DNA of 31,537 nucleotides from a virus. Lineage: Duplodnaviria; Caudoviricetes. Location: IMG/VR virus record IMGVR_UViG_3300020432_000027, positions 1-31,537 of that record; one strand, written 5' to 3'. Numbering within the stretch: the first letter of the stretch is position 1; every line of letters begins with the position of its first letter. A program made the position numbers and the translations under genes. Below the pieces are notes generated by a model that saw only the letters and a program-made list of their open reading frames with translations, was not told where the DNA came from and ran no database searches. Below are positions 18,075 through 28,767 of the stretch, piece after piece.

Positions 18075-18768
18075 CTTTTACAATCTTTAATCCTACAACA
18101 TCTGCCAGACGTTCTATGTCTTTGTCAGTATCGTTCGTTAATAATTCCGATGTTGTAATATTTTGTTCAATTTTAGAAACATCGACAAACATACCCAAAT
18201 GTTTCCCAATATTTTCTAATGATCGGTTAGCATTTGTGTGATCACCTTCGGCTATGGAGTTTTGATACACTTCATGCATCTTTTCCAGGACTTTTTCTTT
18301 TGTCCAACTAATACGTTTCAAAGCTTGTTCTTGATATTCCTCAATACGAGCTTGTACTTTTTTATTATTAAGTAGCTGGCGGGCACGTCGGCGGGTTAGT
18401 CCGTTGGTGTCGTCTTCTTTATACCCAGCAACCTTGTAGGCATTGAGTTCATCACCGGTAGCTGCGTATTCCATACAAAATTTTTCCTGCATTGGAGTCA
18501 TGCCTCTGGGCAATGTGGATTTTGCAAACATTTTATGCTTGGCTGGTCGTTCTAACATCTCTTCTTTTCTCCTTTCGTACTCTTCAGGGTTTTTTCTTTT
18601 TAGGGTAAGCATACGACGTCGTTCAAGTTCCTGTTTCATCTCGTAGATTCGTCCCCCTTGTCTTGTTTTGTATGTCGCAGCTGTTTCTTTAATTAAATTT
18701 ATCAGCTCTTGTTCTTTCATACGACCATACAAGACATGCGGTCGTGGATTCTTTCCCTTTTTTGTCAT
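18046..18768 (-). CDS. terS: Terminase small subunit with N-terminal extension
   Basis: TPMQEKFCMEY...AYKVAGY...ARQLL...VQARI helix-turn-helix, ENIGKHLGMF; overlaps the terL start; AGGAG RBS. Confidence 0.85.
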   Translation of the reverse strand: MTKKGKNPRPHVLYGRMKEQELINLIKETAATYKTRQGGRIYEMKQELERRRMLTLKRKNPEEYERRKEEMLERPAKHKMFAKSTLPRGMTPMQEKFCMEYAATGDELNAYKVAGYKEDDTNGLTRRRARQLLNNKKVQARIEEYQEQALKRISWTKEKVLEKMHEVYQNSIAEGDHTNANRSLENIGKHLGMFVDVSKIEQNITTSELLTNDTDKDIERLADVVGLKIVKGGKSKDTDK

Positions 18769-18808
18769 AGTGTTTTACTCCTATCACTATTATTAGTATA
18801 CCTGTAGT

Positions 18809-18856
18809 AGTTTAGGTAGCCAATGTATCACTGGAAAGGGGGCGACTACCTAAACT
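18809..18856 (-). promoter_or_regulatory. Structured 5' leader hairpin of the late transcript
   Basis: Perfect 11-bp inverted repeat AGTTTAGGTAG (18809-18819) / CTACCTAAACT (18846-18856). Confidence 0.65.
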
Positions 18857-18862
18857 TTATAG

Positions 18863-18891
18863 ACTATAAGTTATTTGTTGACGAATAACAA
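18863..18891 (-). promoter_or_regulatory. Sigma70-type promoter toward terS
   Basis: TTGTTA-N17-TATAGT on the minus strand; predicted +1 at 18856. Confidence 0.55.
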
Positions 18892-18906
18892 GTTTTAAAT
18901 TAGAAT
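18878..18906 (+). promoter_or_regulatory. Sigma70-type promoter for the methyltransferase operon
   Basis: TTGACG-N17-TAGAAT, ending 12 nt before ATG 18919. Confidence 0.7.
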
Positions 18907-18918
18907 GACGGCATATTT

Positions 18919-19518
18919 ATGAGGCCTGAAGATTTTTTATATACACCCATGGTTTTATTAGACCATCGATTAATGGAATATCAATTTTGTATGCAAAATA
19001 TTGTCAATCCTAAAGGACATTACGTAGAATTTGGAGTATACCAAGGAAAATCTATAAATTATTTGGCTAATTTAAATAAAAAAATTACATTTCATGGTTT
19101 TGATAGCTTTGAAGGGCTGCCAGAGCAGTGGTTCATGGGCCATAAAGTTATAGAAAAGGGACATTTTGCTGTATCAGAGCTACCAAAAGTAGTACCAAAC
19201 GTGGTTTTACACGAAGGTTGGTTTGAAGACACCATTCCTGTGTGGAAAAAAGACCACAAACGACATGTGTCGTTTATAAATATTGATTGTGATCTCTATA
19301 AATCTACAAAAACTGTACTTGAATTGCTTAATGATCAGATAGTAGCTGGTACGTTGATACGATTTGATGATTTATTACCATCACCTATATCACCTTATCC
19401 TAAATGGGAGGAAGGGGAATGGAAAGCTTTGGTTGAATGGTGTGTAAATTTTAAGAGAGAAGTTGTCCCGTTAGCTCGTTCATGGAAACAAGGGTGTATT
19501 ATGAAAGTTACGTTGTGA
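18919..19518 (+). CDS. Class I SAM methyltransferase, TylF/MycF-like
   Basis: VEFGVYQGKS, GFDSFEGLPE, GWFEDT, INIDCDLY-x-ST, FDD. Confidence 0.85.
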   Translation: MRPEDFLYTPMVLLDHRLMEYQFCMQNIVNPKGHYVEFGVYQGKSINYLANLNKKITFHGFDSFEGLPEQWFMGHKVIEKGHFAVSELPKVVPNVVLHEGWFEDTIPVWKKDHKRHVSFINIDCDLYKSTKTVLELLNDQIVAGTLIRFDDLLPSPISPYPKWEEGEWKALVEWCVNFKREVVPLARSWKQGCIMKVTL

Positions 19519-19715
19519 TTACAACAAGTATTGGACGAACATTTATCTATACTTGTGGTCATATCGTTATAGCCATTAATGTTGTCTATTGGCTAACGGG
19601 GGCTTCATTGCTTGAGTCTGGTATTGTAGCTTTAGTAGAACCATGTATTAATGGATGTTGGTATTATATACTTGATAGATATTGGACAACACGGATGAAA
19701 GCACTAGATGGCTGA
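19515..19715 (+). CDS. DUF2061-like small membrane protein
   Basis: RTFIYT-x-GH...LTG...ALVEP...YYILDRYW; GTG 19515 overlaps the upstream TGA (the ORF track starts at 19482). Confidence 0.7.
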   Translation: MITTSIGRTFIYTCGHIVIAINVVYWLTGASLLESGIVALVEPCINGCWYYILDRYWTTRMKALDG

Positions 19716-20379
19716 AAGAATTATGGATCCAAACAACATTCGGCCAGATCATTTAGAACGATATAACTTTGCCTGTAAGAAACTTGAAGAACTGACCGAA
19801 CCAGACCACGTTCTTGATATTGGTTGCGGTATTGGCTATGGCTCTGTGATTATGCAAAACATAATGTCAAGCTGGGTAGACTGTATTGATAAATCTAAAG
19901 AGGCACACGAAGTATTTTTAAAGTCGTATGATAACAAAGCTCCTAGAGTTAATTATATTCTACAAGATTTTACAAAGTTGAAGAAAGGGTTATTACGAGA
20001 TAACTATGATGCTGTTGTGTCGTTTGAATTTATTGAACACATACCACCTAATTTAGCTCAAAGTGTATTTGATTTAGCCGGAGAGAAAACAAATTTATTT
20101 ATCTGCTCATCACCGAACGAACGAGTAAGACCACACCAGCTCCCTCCGGTCAATGAGTTTCACTACAAACACTACACCCCAGAAGAGTTTGAGGCTATGG
20201 GTAAACAAGCTGGGTTTACCGATGTTGATTTCTTTTGTCAGACTAGTGGGAAACACTACGACGTACGGCCGGGCCTCGAAGGAGGCAAATTTATGATAGC
20301 TGTATTTTCTAAGGGGGCGATGGGTACCCTAGATTTTAAAACAAGGGGGCCTATTCTACACAAAGAAAATGTAGTATAA
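19708..20379 (+). CDS. Class I SAM methyltransferase
   Basis: HLERYNFA, VLDIGCGIGYGS, YDAVVSFEFIEHI, SSPN, FH-x-KHY. Confidence 0.88.
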   Translation: MAERIMDPNNIRPDHLERYNFACKKLEELTEPDHVLDIGCGIGYGSVIMQNIMSSWVDCIDKSKEAHEVFLKSYDNKAPRVNYILQDFTKLKKGLLRDNYDAVVSFEFIEHIPPNLAQSVFDLAGEKTNLFICSSPNERVRPHQLPPVNEFHYKHYTPEEFEAMGKQAGFTDVDFFCQTSGKHYDVRPGLEGGKFMIAVFSKGAMGTLDFKTRGPILHKENVV

Positions 20380-20503
20380 GTCTGATTTTTGCTGAATTTT
20401 TAAGAGTTTCATATGACATATACATACACACTGTAGTGTTTTTCTGTGCCCCCTCAGTCGTATTGTGGTAGAAGTGCAGTCGTAAAAAAAAATAAAAAAA
20501 GTG

Positions 20504-20536
20504 TTGACAAATATTATGGATAGGGTACACTATAAT
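20504..20536 (+). promoter_or_regulatory. Early sigma70-type promoter
   Basis: TTGACA-N16-TACACT(ATAAT), preceded by A-tracts (UP-like). Confidence 0.65.
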
Positions 20537-20574
20537 AGTAATTTTAATATTAACTTTTATATGGAGAAATGATA

Positions 20575-20823
20575 ATGAAACAATTAGAATTACCACTCAA
20601 ATTTAAACCTAATACTTACGAGAGTTATACGGATATTCAGAAGAAAGAATATTGGTATGCTAATTACTGCATTCAATTACAGAAGATAGATACGGCAGTA
20701 AGAATGCTAAAAGGTCTTATAGACCAAATAGACTACGGCATTGAAGTGCCTGAAAGTGCTTGGTCTAATACAGCCGTTAAAGGTCGTATCAGAAAGATTT
20801 GCAACGATTTAAAAGATAAGTAA
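20575..20823 (+). CDS. Early hypothetical protein
   Basis: Own promoter, GGAGAAATGATA RBS and own terminator; ATG 20575 is better spaced than 20569. Confidence 0.7.
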   Translation: MKQLELPLKFKPNTYESYTDIQKKEYWYANYCIQLQKIDTAVRMLKGLIDQIDYGIEVPESAWSNTAVKGRIRKICNDLKDK

Positions 20824-20843
20824 ATCTATTTCCTTCCTAAATG

Positions 20844-20874
20844 AAAACCCCAGAGTAATCTCTGGGGTTTTTTT
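20844..20874. terminator. Bidirectional intrinsic terminator
   Basis: AAAACCCCAGAG-TAAT-CTCTGGGGTTTT-TTT between convergent genes. Confidence 0.9.
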
Positions 20875-20888
20875 ATGGAGAAGTTTTT

Positions 20889-21116
20889 TTATTTGTAGAT
20901 GTTCTCGGGATCTCGAATCCAATAGTAGGACATAATTATCGAGCATACTAGATATAGGATCAGGCATCCGATGAAGATCATACTATCGACCGGTAGGATC
21001 TCAAGTTGGATCGGATAGATCGTCCCGAGTAGAAAAGAGATCGCCACGACATTCGCCATGGCAATCCAAAAGAATATAGTGTTTAATTTAATCATCATAA
21101 AATTCTTCCGGTTCAT
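20889..21116 (-). CDS. Small two-transmembrane membrane protein
   Basis: Two hydrophobic segments; overlaps the end of the upstream gene; true start may be ATG 21098 or 21095. Confidence 0.55.
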   Translation of the reverse strand: MNRKNFMMIKLNTIFFWIAMANVVAISFLLGTIYPIQLEILPVDSMIFIGCLILYLVCSIIMSYYWIRDPENIYK

Positions 21117-21300
21117 TAATGTATCGCATAAACCCGTCTACTAACATATCAAAGTATCCGGCTTCGCAAACAAAACTTTTGCCCCACCATTGTAGGTCGT
21201 CAGCCACATAGTTATCTACGAAATGTTTAGATTGTTCGGTTAATGGTTCAAGTAGAATAACTGAACCATGATTCTGTATTGTAAAATGTTCTGTAATCAT
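21088..21300 (-). CDS. Early acidic hypothetical protein (70 aa)
   Basis: Start reassigned to MITEHF after AGGAGAAATGAT; NHGSVILL-x-P...WWG motif. Confidence 0.7.
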   Translation of the reverse strand: MITEHFTIQNHGSVILLEPLTEQSKHFVDNYVADDLQWWGKSFVCEAGYFDMLVDGFMRYINEPEEFYDD

Positions 21301-21330
21301 ATCATTTCTCCTATTCTGATTATTATTACA

Positions 21331-21363
21331 ATTATAGAGTAGCACATTAAAAAGCTATGTCAA
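21331..21363 (-). promoter_or_regulatory. Early sigma70-type promoter
   Basis: TTGACA-N16-TACTCT(ATAAT) with a TG extended -10. Confidence 0.65.
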
Positions 21364-21439
21364 CCCCTTATTTATTTTTTTTGTCTTGATATAAAGCCCG
21401 TGAGTGAGTAAATAGACTAGCCGGAATAGTAAAGTACAA

Positions 21440-21479
21440 AGAAAAAAACGGGGTTCACATCACTACCCAAGAAAAAAAC
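21440..21479 (+). repeat. 40-bp bipartite repeat, copy 1
   Basis: AGAAAAAAACGGGGT-N13-CAAGAAAAAAAC. Confidence 0.75.
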
Positions 21480-21486
21480 AAGGCAC

Positions 21487-21521
21487 AAAAAAAAGCCCGT
21501 AGAAATTAATCTACGGACTTT
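21487..21521 (-). terminator. Intrinsic terminator
   Basis: Minus strand AAAGUCCGUAGA-UUAAUU-UCUACGGGCUUU plus a U-tract. Confidence 0.85.
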
Positions 21522-21540
21522 CGTTGGAAGGAACTTTAGA

Positions 21541-21747
21541 TTACTCGTCCATATACATCAGGTCTTCATCTGTGATGCCCTTCTTGGCACACCACTCATC
21601 AAACTTCTTCTGCGAAGACCAAAAGCCGAACTGATTATAAAAACCTTGAGGGTTGCCACCTCTTGTGGTAATCGCCTCGTCAACATTACCAGCTTCTAAC
21701 TCTGCTAATGCTTGTTCATCTAATTGTTCTTGTGTTAGTTTTGGCAT
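21541..21747 (-). CDS. Early acidic hypothetical protein (68 aa)
   Basis: Own promoter, AAGGAGAAATGAT RBS and terminator. Confidence 0.75.
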   Translation of the reverse strand: MPKLTQEQLDEQALAELEAGNVDEAITTRGGNPQGFYNQFGFWSSQKKFDEWCAKKGITDEDLMYMDE

Positions 21748-21768
21748 ATCATTTCTCCTTTCAATTTT

Positions 21769-21797
21769 ATACTACCAAAAAAGAAACCCCGTGTCAA
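21769..21797 (-). promoter_or_regulatory. Early sigma70-type promoter
   Basis: TTGACA-N17-TAGTAT with a TG extension; embedded in the upstream terminator hairpin. Confidence 0.75.
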
Positions 21798-21840
21798 CAT
21801 AGGAAAGACGACGGGGCTTCTACCATTTTGGAGAAATGAT
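21777..21840 (-). ncRNA. Predicted ~64-nt antisense small RNA
   Basis: Promoter at 21847-21875, +1 at 21840, 5' AUCAUUUCUCC, then stem AGAAGCCCCGU/ACGGGGUUUCU and a U-tract. Confidence 0.6.
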
Positions 21841-21846
21841 TTTGTA

Positions 21847-21875
21847 TCACTACCACAATAGCACACATATGTCAA
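21847..21875 (-). promoter_or_regulatory. Promoter for the predicted sRNA
   Basis: TTGACA-N17-TAGTGA(T) with a TG extension; same -10 as the promoter at 28738. Confidence 0.6.
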
Positions 21876-21876
21876 G

Positions 21877-21916
21877 AGAAAAAAACGGGGTGAATACAGC
21901 TAGGCAAGAAAAAAAC
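21877..21916 (+). repeat. 40-bp bipartite repeat, copy 2
   Basis: AGAAAAAAACGGGGT-N13-CAAGAAAAAAAC; a further AAGAAAAAAACG lies at 21949-21960. Confidence 0.75.
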
Positions 21917-22018
21917 CCTATTTAGAACCATTCTAAAGTAAATAATATAAGAAAAAAACGTGGATTGTCCAGCAAAATCAATGGTTTATAGGTGTTCCAT
22001 ATAATTTTATATTTTTTG

Positions 22019-22047
22019 TTGACATTGGGTTCATATAGGGGTATGGT
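22019..22047 (+). promoter_or_regulatory. Main rightward early promoter
   Basis: TTGACA-N17-TATGGT with an AT-rich upstream region. Confidence 0.8.
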
Positions 22048-22103
22048 AGTAGTCATAATATGTATTAATTAATAATATCAACCATTTATAGGAGATTTGT
22101 AAA

Positions 22104-22415
22104 ATGAAACAATTAGTATACGAACACGAGTTTATTAACGATTTAATATCTGATGATTATGCGAGTTTTACTCGTGAGGGTGCAAAGGAATTATATGAGC
22201 ATTTGATAGATTGGGAAGAGGACACGGGCGAAGTCTACGACTTTGACAGAGTGGCAATCCGTTGCGAGTGGTCAGAATATGACAGTTTGGAAAAGTGTTT
22301 GGAGAATTACGACAATATCAAAACATTTGATGAACTTTGTGACCATACAACAGTTTTAAAAATTCACGACTACACGGGCAAGGATACGGGTAGAATAATG
22401 ATAGCAGATTTTTAA
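22104..22415 (+). CDS. Acidic early protein
   Basis: AGGAG RBS; F-x2-EGA-x2-LYE-x-L...D-x-VAIRCEWSEY; very D/E-rich. Confidence 0.8.
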   Translation: MKQLVYEHEFINDLISDDYASFTREGAKELYEHLIDWEEDTGEVYDFDRVAIRCEWSEYDSLEKCLENYDNIKTFDELCDHTTVLKIHDYTGKDTGRIMIADF

Positions 22416-22425
22416 GGGGGAAATC

Positions 22426-22638
22426 ATGGGTAAAGTTAAAGAATATTATTTTGAAAAAGAATCTAAAGACATAGAAGAAGCTATAAGAAATTATGACTAT
22501 CCGGACGGGCAACCCGTTCCAGATGCTCGTTTGGTGGCTTTGGATATATTTGAGGACTTAAAACCACAATTTCACGACATAGAAGAAATACAAGACGGTG
22601 TACAATTCTACTATGACGAGAAATTATGTAATCCATAA
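22426..22638 (+). CDS. Acidic early hypothetical protein
   Basis: AAGGGGG RBS; MGKVKEY start typical of phage early genes. Confidence 0.75.
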   Translation: MGKVKEYYFEKESKDIEEAIRNYDYPDGQPVPDARLVALDIFEDLKPQFHDIEEIQDGVQFYYDEKLCNP

Positions 22639-22660
22639 ACAAATAGGAAAGGGGTAAATT

Positions 22661-22849
22661 ATGGAAAATTTTGTTGATGATATAAAGAAGTTGGAGGATA
22701 TACGACACTTCTTAATTAAAGCAAGTACGAGCAACAATGCTGATACAATCAATGCTTGTAATGGTCTTGCTCTTGAAAAATTAAATAAACATATTGAAAC
22801 TAAAGTTAGAGTTATGAGCCAATTTGAAGAAAGTGAGGCAGAAAAATGA
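22661..22849 (+). CDS. Early hypothetical protein
   Basis: GGAAAGGGG RBS; ATGA coupling downstream. Confidence 0.7.
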   Translation: MENFVDDIKKLEDIRHFLIKASTSNNADTINACNGLALEKLNKHIETKVRVMSQFEESEAEK

Positions 22850-23061
22850 GTTTAAATGTAAAAAATGTAAGATACTTTAGAACTAGACGAGGTCTAGGAT
22901 ATGAGGTCAAAACTGATAAGGGCACTATATGGAATGACGGAAATGGTGGTGCTACTTATTTTGAAGCTGACTATCCTAAATACCACGATAAAGATTTTTC
23001 ACATCTAACGGAATTGGATTTAGAAGCTATCATTGATAAATACGAGGGGGTAGAAAAATGA
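22846..23061 (+). CDS. Early hypothetical protein
   Basis: GAGG RBS; NDGNGG motif; ATGA coupling. Confidence 0.75.
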   Translation: MSLNVKNVRYFRTRRGLGYEVKTDKGTIWNDGNGGATYFEADYPKYHDKDFSHLTELDLEAIIDKYEGVEK

Positions 23062-23237
23062 AATGCTACACAGTAGAATATAAAACCACTAATAAAATAA
23101 AAGAAAGAGAGTTTAACGATTTGTCTAAAGCCCACGAGTTTGCAGAGGTGCAAGGCATGGAGGGACATGACGTTAGAATTTATGACAACACACGAGAAAG
23201 CAGAAAAATAATTGCTGAAGATTGGGGGGTAAGATGA
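23058..23237 (+). CDS. Early hypothetical protein (59 aa)
   Basis: Below the cutoff: MKCYTVEYKTTNKIKEREFNDLSKAHEFAEV...; GAGGGGG RBS, ATGA overlaps at both ends. Confidence 0.65.
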   Translation: MKCYTVEYKTTNKIKEREFNDLSKAHEFAEVQGMEGHDVRIYDNTRESRKIIAEDWGVR

Positions 23238-23413
23238 ATAAAAAATATCTTGTAACAACTTATGCTACTGCCGAATGGGAGTGCATTGTAGAAGCTGACT
23301 CTGTAGAGGAAGCTGAAGAAAAAGTTTGGGAGGGGGATTATGATGAGTTAAACAATGGTGACCCTATCAAAATTGAAGATGAACAAATAAAATCTATAGT
23401 GGAGCAAGAGTAA
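23234..23413 (+). CDS. Acidic early protein with VEA-x-S-x-EEA motif (DpnD/PcfM-like)
   Basis: Start at MNKKY; IVEADSVEEAEEKV. Confidence 0.7.
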   Translation: MNKKYLVTTYATAEWECIVEADSVEEAEEKVWEGDYDELNNGDPIKIEDEQIKSIVEQE

Positions 23414-23673
23414 TGACTAAATTTTCATTAATAACATTTCAGATAACTAACGGAGATTGTCAACATTATGAATACTCGTTCTATGAACGTAAAAATAGAG
23501 CCGGAGTTAGTGATAAAGAAATCATTCAAGATTTTATAGGTAGTGAAGTAGAAGTAGACAAAAATGATGAACATTTGTTTTGGTTTAACGATTGCAGAAC
23601 TATTGAAATCTATGGAATTGACCCTATAACCTATGTGGAAATAGGAGTCTTTAAGAAATTTGGAGTATTGTGA
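23413..23673 (+). CDS. Early hypothetical protein
   Basis: GGAG RBS, TAATG coupling. Confidence 0.7.
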   Translation: MTKFSLITFQITNGDCQHYEYSFYERKNRAGVSDKEIIQDFIGSEVEVDKNDEHLFWFNDCRTIEIYGIDPITYVEIGVFKKFGVL

Positions 23674-23963
23674 TGCCTAAAATAATAGACATAAAATCAA
23701 AAAAACCATTTAAACAAACTAAACTTTGTGATGACCACCAAATTGAGTGGGTGGTTAAAGAGGTGGTAAAGGTGATAAAGAAAGCTGATGCTAAAGGGTT
23801 TGATGCTTTCAATACGAGCAGAGGACTAGCACAACTATGTGTAAGTTATATACACGACTCTGCACCTGATACACTATCAGCTCAACATTTATTATTAACA
23901 ACAATAGGCATAGAACTATCCCAAAAAGTAGAAGAAAGATTGGAGGATAGAGATGACCATTAA
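23670..23963 (+). CDS. Early hypothetical protein
   Basis: GGAG RBS, coupled start. Confidence 0.7.
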   Translation: MMPKIIDIKSKKPFKQTKLCDDHQIEWVVKEVVKVIKKADAKGFDAFNTSRGLAQLCVSYIHDSAPDTLSAQHLLLTTIGIELSQKVEERLEDRDDH

Positions 23964-24132
23964 AGATGAATTAAATAGAACAATGGCTGAACCTAAAACA
24001 TTTAAAGAGTTTATTAGATGGTTGGAGGTATGGTCGCCCGTTGATTGGGAAGAAATGCAACGATTTGAAGATGAAGCAGGTGCATCAGTATGGATTAGAT
24101 TTGATTTAGACAAGGAGGAAGATGATGAGTAA
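23953..24132 (+). CDS. Acidic early hypothetical protein (59 aa)
   Basis: Below the cutoff: MTIKDELNRTMAEPKTFKEFIRWLEVWSP...KEEDDE; GGAGG RBS. Confidence 0.65.
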   Translation: MTIKDELNRTMAEPKTFKEFIRWLEVWSPVDWEEMQRFEDEAGASVWIRFDLDKEEDDE

Positions 24133-24340
24133 AAAATATCATATTGACTTCACAAGTTTGGTAGTTGATCACAGAACTTATGAGAAACTAAACTCAGATA
24201 AATTTCAATACTCAAATCGTAAAGAGTTTATAAAGAGATTAGTTGATGACGATATTATAGAGATTGTTAACATTGAAGAAGCAGATGAAGATGTCTCTAT
24301 AGATAATTTTAATTTTTATAAATATTTTGGAGAAGAGTGA
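24122..24340 (+). CDS. Acidic early hypothetical protein
   Basis: AAGGAGG RBS. Confidence 0.7.
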   Translation: MMSKKYHIDFTSLVVDHRTYEKLNSDKFQYSNRKEFIKRLVDDDIIEIVNIEEADEDVSIDNFNFYKYFGEE

Positions 24341-24561
24341 TGCTTGAGGCAGTAATAGTAACCATATGGGTTGAGTTAGCTGACGGCACATTGAAGTACA
24401 AAAGACTAGGAACGACCACGGATTGTGAGGGAGTGGCGACAAAACTATTTGAAAAGTACGAGCAAAATTCCAAACGACTAGTCGCCGTCAAATGTGATAC
24501 AGCAGAAAGTTTAAAATTAAAAGAAGAAACATTTAAAGGATTATATCCCTATGATAAATAA
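24337..24561 (+). CDS. Early hypothetical protein
   Basis: GGAG RBS; hydrophobic N-terminus, two Cys. Confidence 0.65.
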   Translation: MMLEAVIVTIWVELADGTLKYKRLGTTTDCEGVATKLFEKYEQNSKRLVAVKCDTAESLKLKEETFKGLYPYDK

Positions 24562-24700
24562 CAAAATAATTATGTATATTGATGACGAGAACTATATTGT
24601 AGAGGCAAATGGCAGGAGAGCAACTACAAGTCAAGGGGTACACATAAAAGTACCCTCAGATTACATCAAACATTTTACACGACTTAAAAATGACAGATAA
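24551..24700 (+). CDS. Small hypothetical protein (49 aa)
   Basis: Below the cutoff; AAGGA RBS; bridges its neighbours. Confidence 0.45.
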   Translation: MINNKIIMYIDDENYIVEANGRRATTSQGVHIKVPSDYIKHFTRLKNDR

Positions 24701-24872
24701 GATTACAAATATTGAGACGATATATTATCTGTTTTTCTCTGGCTTGATGTCTAAATCAAGAGCAAGTCAGCAACTTAAACAACTAAATGCCCCAAACTAC
24801 GAAGAAAGACTTTTGACTCTTGAGGGACATAGAAAGGAAAGAGTAGCCAATGGGCGAAAGCAATTTATATAA
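24690..24872 (+). CDS. Small hypothetical protein
   Basis: In the ORF track; same strand, overlapping neighbours. Confidence 0.55.
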   Translation: MTDKITNIETIYYLFFSGLMSKSRASQQLKQLNAPNYEERLLTLEGHRKERVANGRKQFI

Positions 24873-24975
24873 ATTTTTAAAATTATGTTATGGATATTTT
24901 TGTTTTTTTATAATATATTTTACAGTAGGGCTTTTCGGAGTATCAATATTGAATAGTATTTTTAACTTTATGTGA
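24850..24975 (+). CDS. Small membrane protein (41 aa)
   Basis: Below the cutoff: MGESNLYKFLKLCYGYFCFFIIYFTVGLFGVSILNSIFNFM. Confidence 0.45.
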   Translation: MGESNLYKFLKLCYGYFCFFIIYFTVGLFGVSILNSIFNFM

Positions 24976-25121
24976 TGACTTCGTATATGGATAAATGGAC
25001 GGCGAGAAGAATAAAATTTTTAGATAAAGTCATAGCATTAGACATAAAGCAATTTAAGACACAAAAAGAATATGCAGATAAGGTATTAAAAATGTATGAT
25101 GATATAATGGGTGGCAGATGA
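24975..25121 (+). CDS. Small hypothetical protein (48 aa)
   Basis: Below the cutoff; TGATG coupling upstream and ATGA downstream. Confidence 0.5.
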   Translation: MTSYMDKWTARRIKFLDKVIALDIKQFKTQKEYADKVLKMYDDIMGGR

Positions 25122-25201
25122 CACCACAATGGCTCAGAACTTTGACACTATACTCAGTAATACTCTTGGGTATCGTGTTTTTCCTTATAAGTATAATATA
25201 G
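25118..25201 (+). CDS. Small membrane peptide (27 aa)
   Basis: MTPQWLRTLTLYSVILLGIVFFLISII; ATGA coupling. Confidence 0.4.
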   Translation: MTPQWLRTLTLYSVILLGIVFFLISII

Positions 25202-25241
25202 GTATTACTACAACAATATACTAAAGGTATCCACATAGACT

Positions 25242-25320
25242 CCTATGTATACCTATAAATCCTAAGTACACCTATGTATTCAGCTAGGTATACATATAGA
25301 TACTCATAGATACATATAGT
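25242..25320. repeat. Phased CCTA/ATAG repeats with a 12-bp inverted repeat
   Basis: TATGTATACCTA (25244-25255) / TAGGTATACATA (25285-25296); CCTA at 25242, 25252, 25261, 25271; ATAG at 25296, 25306, 25316. Confidence 0.65.
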
Positions 25321-25361
25321 TCCCCTCGGGAGATAACCCAACCTACCATGCTTTTTTCCTG

Positions 25362-25390
25362 TTGACAACCCCTCCCGTGTATTTTATAGT
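25362..25390 (+). promoter_or_regulatory. Sigma70-type promoter for the replication operon
   Basis: TTGACA-N17-TATAGT. Confidence 0.85.
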
Positions 25391-25428
25391 ACAATTTGGG
25401 AAAAACGAGGTGTGAAAGGGGGAAAAAC

Positions 25429-27072
25429 ATGGAACACCAAACAGACTCTAAATTCATAAAGCACATACCGTGCGACAACTGTGGGTCATCTGACGGTAAC
25501 TCACTATATTCAGACGGACATACTTACTGTTTCGTATGCAACACACATACACCCGGCGACAACCCGGCCCCTGTACCTAAACAGGAACCACCGAAGCCAC
25601 AAACCCTACCGAACGGCATCATTGATGAACTGACAGATCGCCACATATCCAGGGAGACCTGCCAACGATACGGAGTGAAACACAATCGTGTTGACACACA
25701 GATCAGCCGTCACCTCTATCCGTACACCGACAAAAACGGGAATCACATCGGGACTAAAGTCAGAGATACCCAAACCAAGGACTTCAAATATATAGGCGAT
25801 AGCCGTAACAGTATACTTTTTGGGCAGCACATCTTTGCCAAGGGTGGTAAATACATAACTATCTTCGAAGGAGAAGTGGATGCTCTGTCAGGCTACGAGA
25901 TGCTCGGATCACGATGGCCGTGCGTATCCATCAAAAACGGTGCTCAGTCAGCTGTATCAGACTGCCAGAAGAACTTTGAATATATCAACAGCTTTGACAC
26001 GATAGTCCTCTGCTTTGATAACGATGAACCCGGACGTAAAGCATCACAACAGGTTGCCGATCTGTTTCCACCCAACAAAGTCAAAGTCGTAGACCTCCAC
26101 CTCAAAGATGCAAACGAATACATTGCCACCAATAACCGTAAAGGATTCACACAGCTCTGGTGGGAAGCTCGAGACTACACACCGGAGGGTATAATCCTCG
26201 GAGAGTCAACGTGGGACTTGATAGAAAACGAGAAACCACAAGAGTCCTTGCCCTACCCGTGGCGGGGTATGAACGATATGACATACGGTATGAGAAAATC
26301 AGAACTCACCTGTTGGTGTGCCGGCTCGGGTATCGGCAAGTCTAGTGTTATGCGAGAACTAGCCCACCACATTGTAAAGAACACCACAGAATCCGTTGGC
26401 TGTCTATTCTTGGAGGAAAGTGTCCTCCGCACAGCTAAAGGACTAATGTCTGTTGAGGCCAACCTCCCCCTACACCTACCCACAACAACGGCCTCAATGG
26501 ACATTAAAAAAGATGCATGGAATCAAACACTTGGCACCGGTAGAGTCAGATTATGGGATCACTTTGGTGCTACAAACATAGATAATGTCATTAGTAAGAT
26601 ACAATATTTGTCCTCTGGACTAGCATGTAAGTACATAATTGTTGATCATCTGCATATGATTGTCGGTGCTCATGAGGGTAACGATGAACGACGAGCCATA
26701 GATACAATCATGACCAGACTCAGAACTCTCGTGCAAGAACAAGGTATACATCTAATGCTTGTATCTCACCTAAGACGAACACTACCACAAAACAACACAG
26801 CCGAAGAGGGAGGAAGCATATCTCTAGCTGACCTCAGAGGTTCACATGGTATTGCTCAGTTATGTGATATGGTGTTTGCTTTGATACGAAACGGACAAGC
26901 TGATACTGAAGACAAACGAAATTTAACAACGATACGAGTATTGAAAAACAGATTCAGTGGAGAAACCGGGCCATGTTGTTGGTTGAAGTGGGACAAAAAT
27001 ACTGGTAGGATGCAAGAACAAAAACAACCCGAACCAGCAGGAGAGAGTGATACGGATGCCGTCTTCCTTTAA
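25429..27072 (+). CDS. DNA primase-helicase (T7 gp4-like)
   Basis: Zn finger CDNC...CFVC, TOPRIM EGEVDA and FDND, Walker A AGSGIGKS, IVDHL, SHLRR, DLRGS, KNRF; start at MEHQ after GAAAGGGGG. Confidence 0.95.
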   Translation: MEHQTDSKFIKHIPCDNCGSSDGNSLYSDGHTYCFVCNTHTPGDNPAPVPKQEPPKPQTLPNGIIDELTDRHISRETCQRYGVKHNRVDTQISRHLYPYTDKNGNHIGTKVRDTQTKDFKYIGDSRNSILFGQHIFAKGGKYITIFEGEVDALSGYEMLGSRWPCVSIKNGAQSAVSDCQKNFEYINSFDTIVLCFDNDEPGRKASQQVADLFPPNKVKVVDLHLKDANEYIATNNRKGFTQLWWEARDYTPEGIILGESTWDLIENEKPQESLPYPWRGMNDMTYGMRKSELTCWCAGSGIGKSSVMRELAHHIVKNTTESVGCLFLEESVLRTAKGLMSVEANLPLHLPTTTASMDIKKDAWNQTLGTGRVRLWDHFGATNIDNVISKIQYLSSGLACKYIIVDHLHMIVGAHEGNDERRAIDTIMTRLRTLVQEQGIHLMLVSHLRRTLPQNNTAEEGGSISLADLRGSHGIAQLCDMVFALIRNGQADTEDKRNLTTIRVLKNRFSGETGPCCWLKWDKNTGRMQEQKQPEPAGESDTDAVFL

Positions 27073-28741
27073 ATATACAGTATTAGATATAGAAACCGAT
27101 GAGATACCGGTAACAAAGATACATTGTATATGTTGCATGGATTTTGAAACAGGAGAAACAAAAGAGTTTATTGATAACCTTGACGAGTTTGTAGAGTTTC
27201 ATAAACAAGACCCGGAAAGAATATATATTATGCACAACGGTGTCAGTTTTGATGCTATCGTTCTTAGTCGACTATTACAGATTTGTTTACCACCAAAAAG
27301 AGTATGGGATACAATGCTAGCTTCACAGATGATACAACCACACAGAGATGGTGGCCATAGCTTGAAAGCCTGGGGCGAACGATTACAATGTGAGAAGATA
27401 GACTTCAAGGATAACTTTGAAACATACAGCAACGAGATGCTCTACTATTGTCGTCAGGATGTAGCCCTGACTCGTAAACTAGCCCAACATCTACAGCCGT
27501 TGCTCAAACCATTTGGTAAAGCACCGGTGAGACTAGAACATAAAGTCAGACACATAATTACACAGCAAGAACTCAACGGTTTTTACCTTGACCAGAAGAA
27601 AGCATCAATGCTGATGGCTGATCTTGAGGACAACTCCGGTCAGATAAAACAAGACTTACAGAAAATATTTCCACCAATAATAACAGAGAGATACAGTGAC
27701 AAGACCGGTAAACGATTAAAAGATAACGTCGAAGTATTCAATCCAAACTCTCGTCAACAAATAATAAAACGATTGAAAGCTGTGGGGTGGCAGCCCGATC
27801 CTCAACGACTAACCCCAAAAGGACAACCTATAGTGGACGAATCGGTGCTCTCAGAGATTGATTTATCTGAAGCTAAAAAGATGTCAGAGTTTTTATTAAT
27901 GCAGAAAAGAGTATCACAAATAAAATCATGGCTCGAAGCTGTAGGACCAGACAGCCGGGTGCATGGCAGAGTTATAACAATCGGCTGTGTGACACACCGT
28001 ATGAGTCATTATAGTCCTAACATGGCACAGATACCCGCCAGTTATTCTCCGTATGGCCCGGAGTGTAGAGATTGTTGGACAGTAGAAGACCCCGTAAATT
28101 ATTGTCTTGTTGGTTCAGATGCTTCATCACTAGAGATACGATGCTTTGCTCACTACCTTAATAATCAAAAGTATACAGACATTGTTGTTGGTGGTGACAT
28201 TCACAATGTGCACAAAGAAGCTTTGGGTTTAGCTGATCGATCAGTATGTAAAACTTGGTTGTATGCCTACATCTACGGAGCCGGCAATGAAAAGCTAGGC
28301 AAGGTTGTTGGGGGTGGTATGTCTGAGGGCAAACAACTACGAGATAAGTTTGAGTCAGCCTTTCCAATGATAAGAGAACTAAAGAATAAAATTACGGCTA
28401 TGATACGATCCAACCACGGTAACATAAAAGCTATTGATGGCAGACTTTTAGAATGTCGAAGTGAGCACTCAGCTTTAAATGTTTTATTACAAAGCTGTGG
28501 TAGTATTGTATGCAAACATTTTCTTTGTGAGATTGATCGCATGGTCAAAGAGAAAAAGTTAGATGCAAGACCGGTAGCCAATGTGCATGATGAAGTACAG
28601 TGGGAGGTCAAAAGAGATCAAGCCGAAGAGTTCGGTCAGATTACTAAACAAGCTATGAAACAAGCTGAAAAGATTTTACAGTTCAACTGTCCTTTAGATA
28701 GTGAATATCATATTGGGACAACTTGGAAAGAAACTCATTGA
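27047..28741 (+). CDS. DNA polymerase family A with 3'-5' exonuclease (T7 gp5-like)
   Basis: Exo motifs DIET, HNGVSFD, YCRQD; motif A DASSLEIR, motif B R-x3-KTWLYAYIYG, motif C VHDE; start may be ATG 27056. Confidence 0.95.
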   Translation: MIRMPSSFKYTVLDIETDEIPVTKIHCICCMDFETGETKEFIDNLDEFVEFHKQDPERIYIMHNGVSFDAIVLSRLLQICLPPKRVWDTMLASQMIQPHRDGGHSLKAWGERLQCEKIDFKDNFETYSNEMLYYCRQDVALTRKLAQHLQPLLKPFGKAPVRLEHKVRHIITQQELNGFYLDQKKASMLMADLEDNSGQIKQDLQKIFPPIITERYSDKTGKRLKDNVEVFNPNSRQQIIKRLKAVGWQPDPQRLTPKGQPIVDESVLSEIDLSEAKKMSEFLLMQKRVSQIKSWLEAVGPDSRVHGRVITIGCVTHRMSHYSPNMAQIPASYSPYGPECRDCWTVEDPVNYCLVGSDASSLEIRCFAHYLNNQKYTDIVVGGDIHNVHKEALGLADRSVCKTWLYAYIYGAGNEKLGKVVGGGMSEGKQLRDKFESAFPMIRELKNKITAMIRSNHGNIKAIDGRLLECRSEHSALNVLLQSCGSIVCKHFLCEIDRMVKEKKLDARPVANVHDEVQWEVKRDQAEEFGQITKQAMKQAEKILQFNCPLDSEYHIGTTWKETH

Positions 28742-28767
28742 CAACTATTTTTTTATGTGTTAGTGAT
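28738..28767 (+). promoter_or_regulatory. Promoter upstream of ssb
   Basis: TTGACA-N17-TAGTGA(T) with a TG extension; the -35 overlaps the pol stop codon. Confidence 0.6.

Follow-up and report, generated by a model that had tools for sequence, protein, structure and literature searches.

A candidate 64-nt small RNA complementary to the ribosome-binding-site tag of shuffled early gene cassettes in a tailed phage

Why do three unrelated early genes of one phage begin behind the same 11 bases, and why does a fourth, reversed copy of these bases stand close by? We addressed this question in a linear virus record of 31,537 nucleotides (31.5 kb, 37% G+C, 54% complete), the whole of which is called the window here; complete relatives of the phage are about 59 kb long. 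The capsid protein of the window is 54% identical to its homologue in Pelagibacter phage HTVC023P and the DNA polymerase 44% identical to that of HTVC103P/104P, and we infer that the host is a marine alphaproteobacterium. DNA comparison gave no cultured relatives, and a search of host genomes with the pattern of the small-RNA unit described below returned seven matches, all by chance. The phage is likely lytic, and the integrase domain PF00589 was found in none of five related records (three of them complete, but these from sister clades).

The motif, GGAGAAATGAT, occurs in the window on the plus strand at 20563 and 21830 and on the minus strand at 21311 and 21758, that is, four times where 0.01 copies are expected, and none of 100 shuffled sequences reached four copies. 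The enrichment was limited to exact copies, since with two mismatches allowed we counted 13 sites vs 12.0 expected. Three of the copies mark the start sites of short gene cassettes, as claimed in an earlier note on this DNA, and the fourth, reversed, lies at the predicted +1 of a candidate small RNA. The same note held that the three genes are separately promoted and that a partial copy precedes ssb; indeed, each gene has its own TTGACA-N16/17-TAnnnT site, and GGAGAAAT is present before ssb.

Cassette 1, on the minus strand, carries the exact tag at 21748–21758 (predicted duplex with the small-RNA seed, −16.3), followed by an ORF of 68 aa (21541–21747) from a family of nine, whose protein gave no Pfam, PHROG or Atlas match, and by a 3′ end (21484–21533) made of a TTCCTTCC motif (21526–21533) and a terminator. 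A spacer repeat lies between the cassettes (21440–21479) and is 80% identical to a second copy at 21877–21916, upstream of the small-RNA promoter. Cassette 2, also on the minus strand, has a promoter (21336–21363) that shares 64 nt of inverted homology with that of the plus-strand cassette, an exact tag (21301–21311) and an ORF of 70 aa (21088–21300) with four close homologues only; behind it comes a small hydrophobic ORF whose end is at 20889. Cassette 3, on the plus strand, has a promoter of the type given above (20504–20531), an exact tag (20563–20573) and an ORF of 82 aa (20575–20823). The converging cassettes are separated by a TTCCTTCC motif (20830–20837, plus strand) with a two-way terminator, together spanning 20830–20876. 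The promoter modules of the array are duplicated and inverted. In relatives, the cassette layout is promoter, tag, short ORF, TTCCTTCC, terminator and spacer repeat, and the array, placed between a methyltransferase gene and the small-RNA unit, draws on some ten unrelated ORF types, whose order and number change from locus to locus. The unit stands at the head of the array in every locus that has both. None of 12 cassette proteins gave a Pfam match or a named or informative PHROG match. One cassette family (L001:3247-3477, L275:2883-3125) carries CxxC and CxxCH motifs and looks zinc-finger-like; it has nine homologues in the protein collection and no Pfam match. In most cassettes of the clade, TTCCTTCC lies between stop codon and terminator, where it could pair with a Shine-Dalgarno (SD) sequence or bind a protein; the 3′ ends of the sister lineage L275 are related and CC-rich.

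We then looked at the reversed copy. The coordinates given in the earlier note proved correct: on the minus strand, TTGACA (21875–21870), N17 and TAGTGA (21852–21847) form a predicted promoter (21847–21875) with an extended −10 TG, and a 6-nt spacer after TAGTGA sets the predicted +1 at 21840. The predicted RNA of 64 nt (21777–21840) folds into two hairpins and a U tract, with a z-score of −5.35 vs shuffles. Its seed, nt 1–11 (21830–21840), is complementary to the cassette tag at every position. The note had described the 5′ end as largely unpaired; this was not borne out, as nt 1–7 are predicted to pair with nt 13–19 (pairing probability 0.8–0.97) in a 5′ hairpin (21822–21840) with a 7-bp stem that exposes CUCC in its loop, CUCCA. 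The inner strand, nt 13–19, is a mimic of the target, weakened by a G-U pair. The second hairpin (21777–21821) resembles an intrinsic terminator, with an 11-bp stem plus 3 bp before the U tract, and its G-U pairs are possible on the minus strand only. This terminator doubles as the promoter of the next cassette, the −35 and −10 boxes of the promoter of cassette 1 (21769–21797, similar to the PeSL modules discussed below) lying inside and just behind it.

A consensus promoter scan missed the small-RNA promoter because its −10 box lacks the last T, at −7, which is usual in Alphaproteobacteria (PMC8407463, in part). TTGACA-N17-TAGTGA is found a second time in the window, at 28738–28766 upstream of ssb, and is kept there in the loci L016 and L069; this promoter form may represent a weaker or later class. 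Over 18500–25500, Rfam covariance models, C4 and LhrC included, gave nothing but sub-threshold matches. In four RNA runs each for the window and for L275, all of them weak (0–6% of words), no contig covered the unit. At the sequence level, the unit has what a trans-acting anti-SD small RNA should have, namely a promoter and a terminator of its own and no conserved ORF.

Which start regions would such an RNA bind? Among the 54 start regions of the window, the three cassette starts ranked 1 to 3 for the seed, at −16.3 to −16.7 vs −12.6 for the next, and when the folded RNA was cofolded with each region they ranked 1, 3 and 4. Across 20 loci, predicted pairing with the seed extended over 11 bp for 52 of 88 SD-led ORFs and over 8 bp or more for 71 of them, the loci being related and the ORF rows including mis-starts, second genes and antisense ORFs. 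Pairing was shorter in two cassette families (8–9 bp) and in a third (7 bp). In the family of cassette 3, the tag carries an A-to-G change in 10 of 16 members that keeps a G-U pair, yet the two such wobble-compatible changes count for little because pairing would tolerate four of seven non-SD transitions in any case. The leader of the first early-operon gene, 22104, ranked fifth of 54 (cofold −10.7) through a site at 22081–22095 (plus strand) that pairs with nt 7–11 and 13–19, and ACCATTT-N3-GGAGA precedes this gene in all nine distinct clade variants listed; by this prediction the gene may be a fourth target. A site at 24340 ranked second of 54 and was discarded, as it is conserved in neither L016 nor L069, which shows that energy ranking yields false positives. 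We also set aside a second seed that the earlier note had placed in the terminator loop, against 22643–22651 upstream of ORF 22661: the match is present in the window, but the loop is variable (exact in three of eight distinct sequences and absent in L275) and predicted binding to ORF 22661 reached −4.2 kcal/mol only. No RBS of ORF 22661 was retrieved in relatives.

Conservation of the unit was studied in relatives collected without reference to the seed. Of 73 loci retrieved through the neighbouring methyltransferase, nine contain the unit (two of these, L006 and L007, being near-identical), and two seed-free patterns retrieved the contigs of the same nine loci. A metagenome scan, in which 17 of 87 matches were homologues, had selected on the seed and was hence left out of the following comparison. 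All nine loci keep nt 1–19 unchanged. In the eight full-length sequences from them, nt 1–19 were thus invariant, while the bases just upstream of +1 and the promoter spacer varied; the −35 box and TGTGGTAGT were retained despite the variable spacer. The invariance of nt 12–19, equal to that of the seed, would be explained by nt 13–19 mimicking the target in the 5′ hairpin. Across the eight distinct RNAs, 100% of cells were paired, against 39–57% in slid controls, these scores being inflated by relatedness, and three terminator pairs (columns 20/59, 24/55 and 27/52) were changed on both sides; none of 500 shuffles reached this covariation on cells changed. The seven pairs of the 5′ hairpin never vary within the clade, so that no covariation can be seen there. 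The unit is a real non-coding unit under selection.

The sister lineage L275 was found through one cassette protein (60% identity), and a seed-blind pattern led to it a second time. Its layout is the same, its cassettes are orthologous, and its unit, though diverged, folds alike into two hairpins (5′ hairpin of 5 bp with a 6-nt loop), with a promoter at the small-RNA position (TTGACT-N16-TATACA) and another embedded in the terminator (TTGACT-N17-TAGAAT). The seed of L275 is one U shorter, and the tags of all four of its cassettes are one A shorter. Accordingly spelled, GGAGAATG occurs six times in L275, at the four cassette starts, before the first early gene and, reversed, in the seed, and is absent from the window, whereas GGAGAAATG occurs four times in the window and never in L275; the orthologue of gene 22104 carries the full L275 tag. 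Each RNA was predicted to outbind that of the other lineage on its own tags (3/3 in the window, 5/5 in L275), by 1.8–6.5 kcal/mol over the eight sites, with the other lineage's RNA still binding window tags at −8.6 to −11. A search for seed and RBS covariation in relatives had been proposed in the earlier note, and this joint change of one base is what it gave: the seed is complementary to the starts and co-varies with them in one independent event. Being a single event on one contig, it is nevertheless the strongest evidence that the sequences offer for a small RNA. No lineage beyond L275 came out of scans that used gene 22104, the terminator motif or the zinc-finger-like cassette; a protein, P0013, that is 73% identical to the L275 protein hints at another one.

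Altogether, these results suggest, with a probability that we put at about two in three, that the unit encodes a trans-acting small RNA blocking translation of swappable early cassettes via their common RBS tag. The core of the note's proposal, an RNA acting over a shared RBS, thus gained comparative support (the unit is conserved, its stem shows compensatory changes, the rival ORF is broken in some variants, and seed and tags changed jointly in L275); its unpaired 5′ end and its loop seed against ORF 22661 were not supported. We infer the following course for nucleation, displacement, repression and timing. Host RNA polymerase would transcribe the 64-nt RNA, whose exposed CUCC loop would nucleate on a GGAG Shine-Dalgarno. 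Only messages that continue with AAAUGAU would push the weaker inner strand aside and close 9–11 pairs, and because displacement would need AAAUGAU, ordinary GGAG sites of the host would be largely spared. The duplex would cover the SD and the spacer up to the start codon. As the RNA and its targets use host-type promoters, a pulse or a ceiling of cassette protein is the likely outcome, and any new cassette recombining in behind the tag would come under the same control.

Other explanations of the reversed copy have to be weighed against this small RNA. The tags could serve only as recombination homology of PeSL-like cassettes, the reversed copy being a relic kept by gene conversion. PeSLs, which combine a promoter, a stem-loop and a Shine-Dalgarno, do recombine (PMC2839356, in part), promoter modules in the window array are duplicated and inverted, the promoter region of the unit shows a 34-nt inverted likeness to the start of cassette 1, and sister clades hold tags with no reversed copy. 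We consider this improbable, given that no more than 9–11 bp are in common, bounded by the predicted +1 and the hairpin loop, that the flanks differ, and that both lineages retained a unit with a promoter of its own, a hairpin and a compensated terminator. Slightly more improbable than a relic is a unit acting in cis only, as a leader that folds onto the next RBS in read-through RNA or occludes the embedded promoter. The seed is predicted to fold onto the next tag in such RNA (−35.4 kcal/mol, with the same fold in L275), and the terminator overlaps the next promoter; this fold fits a cis-only unit and a fail-safe of the trans-acting RNA alike. The next cassette, however, has a promoter of its own, the cassette adjoining the unit often has the weakest tag, and cassettes that are distant or on the opposite strand carry the same tag, changed likewise in L275.

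If the 19-bp imperfect inverted repeat at +1 were an operator, bound as DNA by a dimeric protein, the arms at 1–7 and 13–19 over the start site would be accounted for. Such an operator is very unlikely in view of the centre of the repeat, which is invariant and matches the SD, of the half-site spacing, which is one base shorter in L275, of the cassette sites, which lack the left arm, and of the mismatch in the repeat, which becomes a G-U pair in the RNA. The constancy of the seed across the clade while cassette content varies would let the RNA act across genomes, and its main aim might then be host mRNAs or co-infecting relatives, with its own cassettes secondary; since seed and own tags changed together in L275, we give this very little credence. 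Finally, the plus-strand ATG at 21836 might start a 29-aa gene, which would turn the motif into a fourth RBS. The frame is open over 29 codons in 12 of 18 variants, but a stop at codon 9 breaks it in four of the 18 (two more are cut by contig ends). Moreover, the ATG is just 2 nt from GGAG, changes in the ORF are mostly residue-altering and no plus-strand promoter match was found between 21080 and 21985, all of which makes this gene the least credible of the alternatives.

How does the candidate RNA compare with systems already described? In Cluster K mycobacteriophages and in Microbacterium cluster EF, start-associated sequences (SAS) are RBSs conserved beyond 16S pairing (PMC3203893, PMC7302621, PMC11373665, each in part); they precede unrelated non-structural genes, and their function is given as unknown, still so in 2024–2025 in the parts available of PMC11373665 and PMC12699233. 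The window tag likewise recurs at the RBS of unrelated non-structural genes and is conserved over more than the SD, but its sequence is unrelated to the Cluster K consensus. In four K1 phages, a reversed SAS away from starts was described, and an RNA or protein binder left open (PMC3203893, 2011, in part), whereas in the window the reversed copy makes up the 5′ end of a compact unit with promoter and terminator, and copy and tag co-vary. In Adephagia, we located the reversed SAS in a hairpin loop of the 92–93 intergenic region; AnnaSerena has no counterpart. The loop matched the SAS within two mismatches in three of eight Cluster K phages, with no co-variation, so the parallel is weak, and an extension of the small-RNA model to phages of Cluster K or EF was not supported. 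About 330 nt of structured sequence were seen before the late genes of Cluster K phages (L260:18545-18880, L261-L267), with matches in 188 records; TAGACT is invariant there, and seven of eight aligned sequences show a CU-rich hairpin loop.

In the T4-type phages RB49 and phi1, PeSLs consist of a Sigma70-like promoter, an overlapping stem-loop and an SD that flank ORFans in a variable region, and these cassettes are gained, lost and reordered (PMC2839356, in part). The window array similarly has repeated promoter/stem-loop/SD modules around ORFans of varying order and number, although RB49 and phi1 belong to an unrelated phage family and the main text of that paper, as far as available, mentions no antisense RNA. 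The C4 antisense RNA of P1 and P7 serves lysogeny and controls one operon, icd-ant (PMC8198154, in part). Like C4, the window RNA is a phage RNA at the head of a region, predicted to repress the phage's own genes (PMC8198154, in part), but it is 64 nt long, has its own terminator, several separately promoted targets and no Rfam match. LhrC, one of several CU-rich anti-SD sRNAs, blocks translation through a CU-rich motif and rearranges its structure on binding, and the window RNA shares with it a CU-rich anti-SD loop and a predicted rearrangement, while LhrC is chromosomal, multicopy and stress-induced and its targets carry no standardised tag on mobile cassettes (PMC4132741, in part). By analogy, the window RNA would work like C4 and LhrC and is a member of neither. 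Type I toxin-antitoxin systems have one antitoxin RNA per toxin and long complementarity, with which the window, having one RNA and 7–11 bp for many unrelated ORFs, does not agree.

We propose tentatively, as the more doubtful part of our reading, a plug-in riboregulon in which one small RNA reads a standard RBS address on every mobile cassette. No phage small RNA against a common tag on shuffled cassettes was found among the openly accessible papers searched, part of the text of the review PMC12197685 included. If the riboregulon exists, newly acquired, possibly host-toxic genes would come pre-wired for timed shut-off, the cassettes of co-infecting relatives could be silenced too, start-associated sequences in phages would have a first mechanism, and cassette shuffling would be tied to control by RNA in a family of marine phages in which no integrase was found. 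Over-conserved phage RBS tags have been known since 2011, and the locus offers a compact candidate reader of 64 nt. It also suggests a simple route to specificity for an anti-SD loop, and its two natural seed/tag pairs, one base apart, are a ready-made swap experiment that requires no cultured host.

Other features were noted around the locus and in sister clades. A palindrome, TTTAGAACCATTCTAAA, lies at the early divergence point of the window (21921–21937); close variants are found in several sister clades, L275 holds three copies of this type, and an operator, an origin or a packaging signal are possible roles. At 25200–25330, ahead of the primase promoter, TATAC/GTATA repeats of low complexity form a possible replication origin. 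Sister clades repeat RBS tags of their own 2–7 times, and in 27 of their loci no reversed non-start copy of at least nine bases was found, meaning that tag sharing alone requires no RNA. Early genes of L002, L004, L005, L024 and L025 have a non-canonical start tag, AGAAAGTGAG, in 3–7 copies lacking GGAG and with no reversed copy nearby. Just before the first early gene, sister-clade loci (L008, L019, L032-L035, L037-L039, L042, L045, L046, L049, L055, L058, L060, L062-L064 and L067) show a stem of 16–17 bp, varying in sequence yet paired, which may be a further RNA element or a site for RNase III. Its loop of 23–27 nt holds ATTT(C/T)CTTC, which could pair 8–9 bp with these clades' own tag, AAGGAGATA; in L038, the loop is a 10-bp complement of the RBS of the divergent gene. 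Finally, a cassette ORF type was seen in a sister clade (L274:4001-4279) right behind the CU-loop leader and with the RBS of that clade, indicating that ORFs move between architectures.
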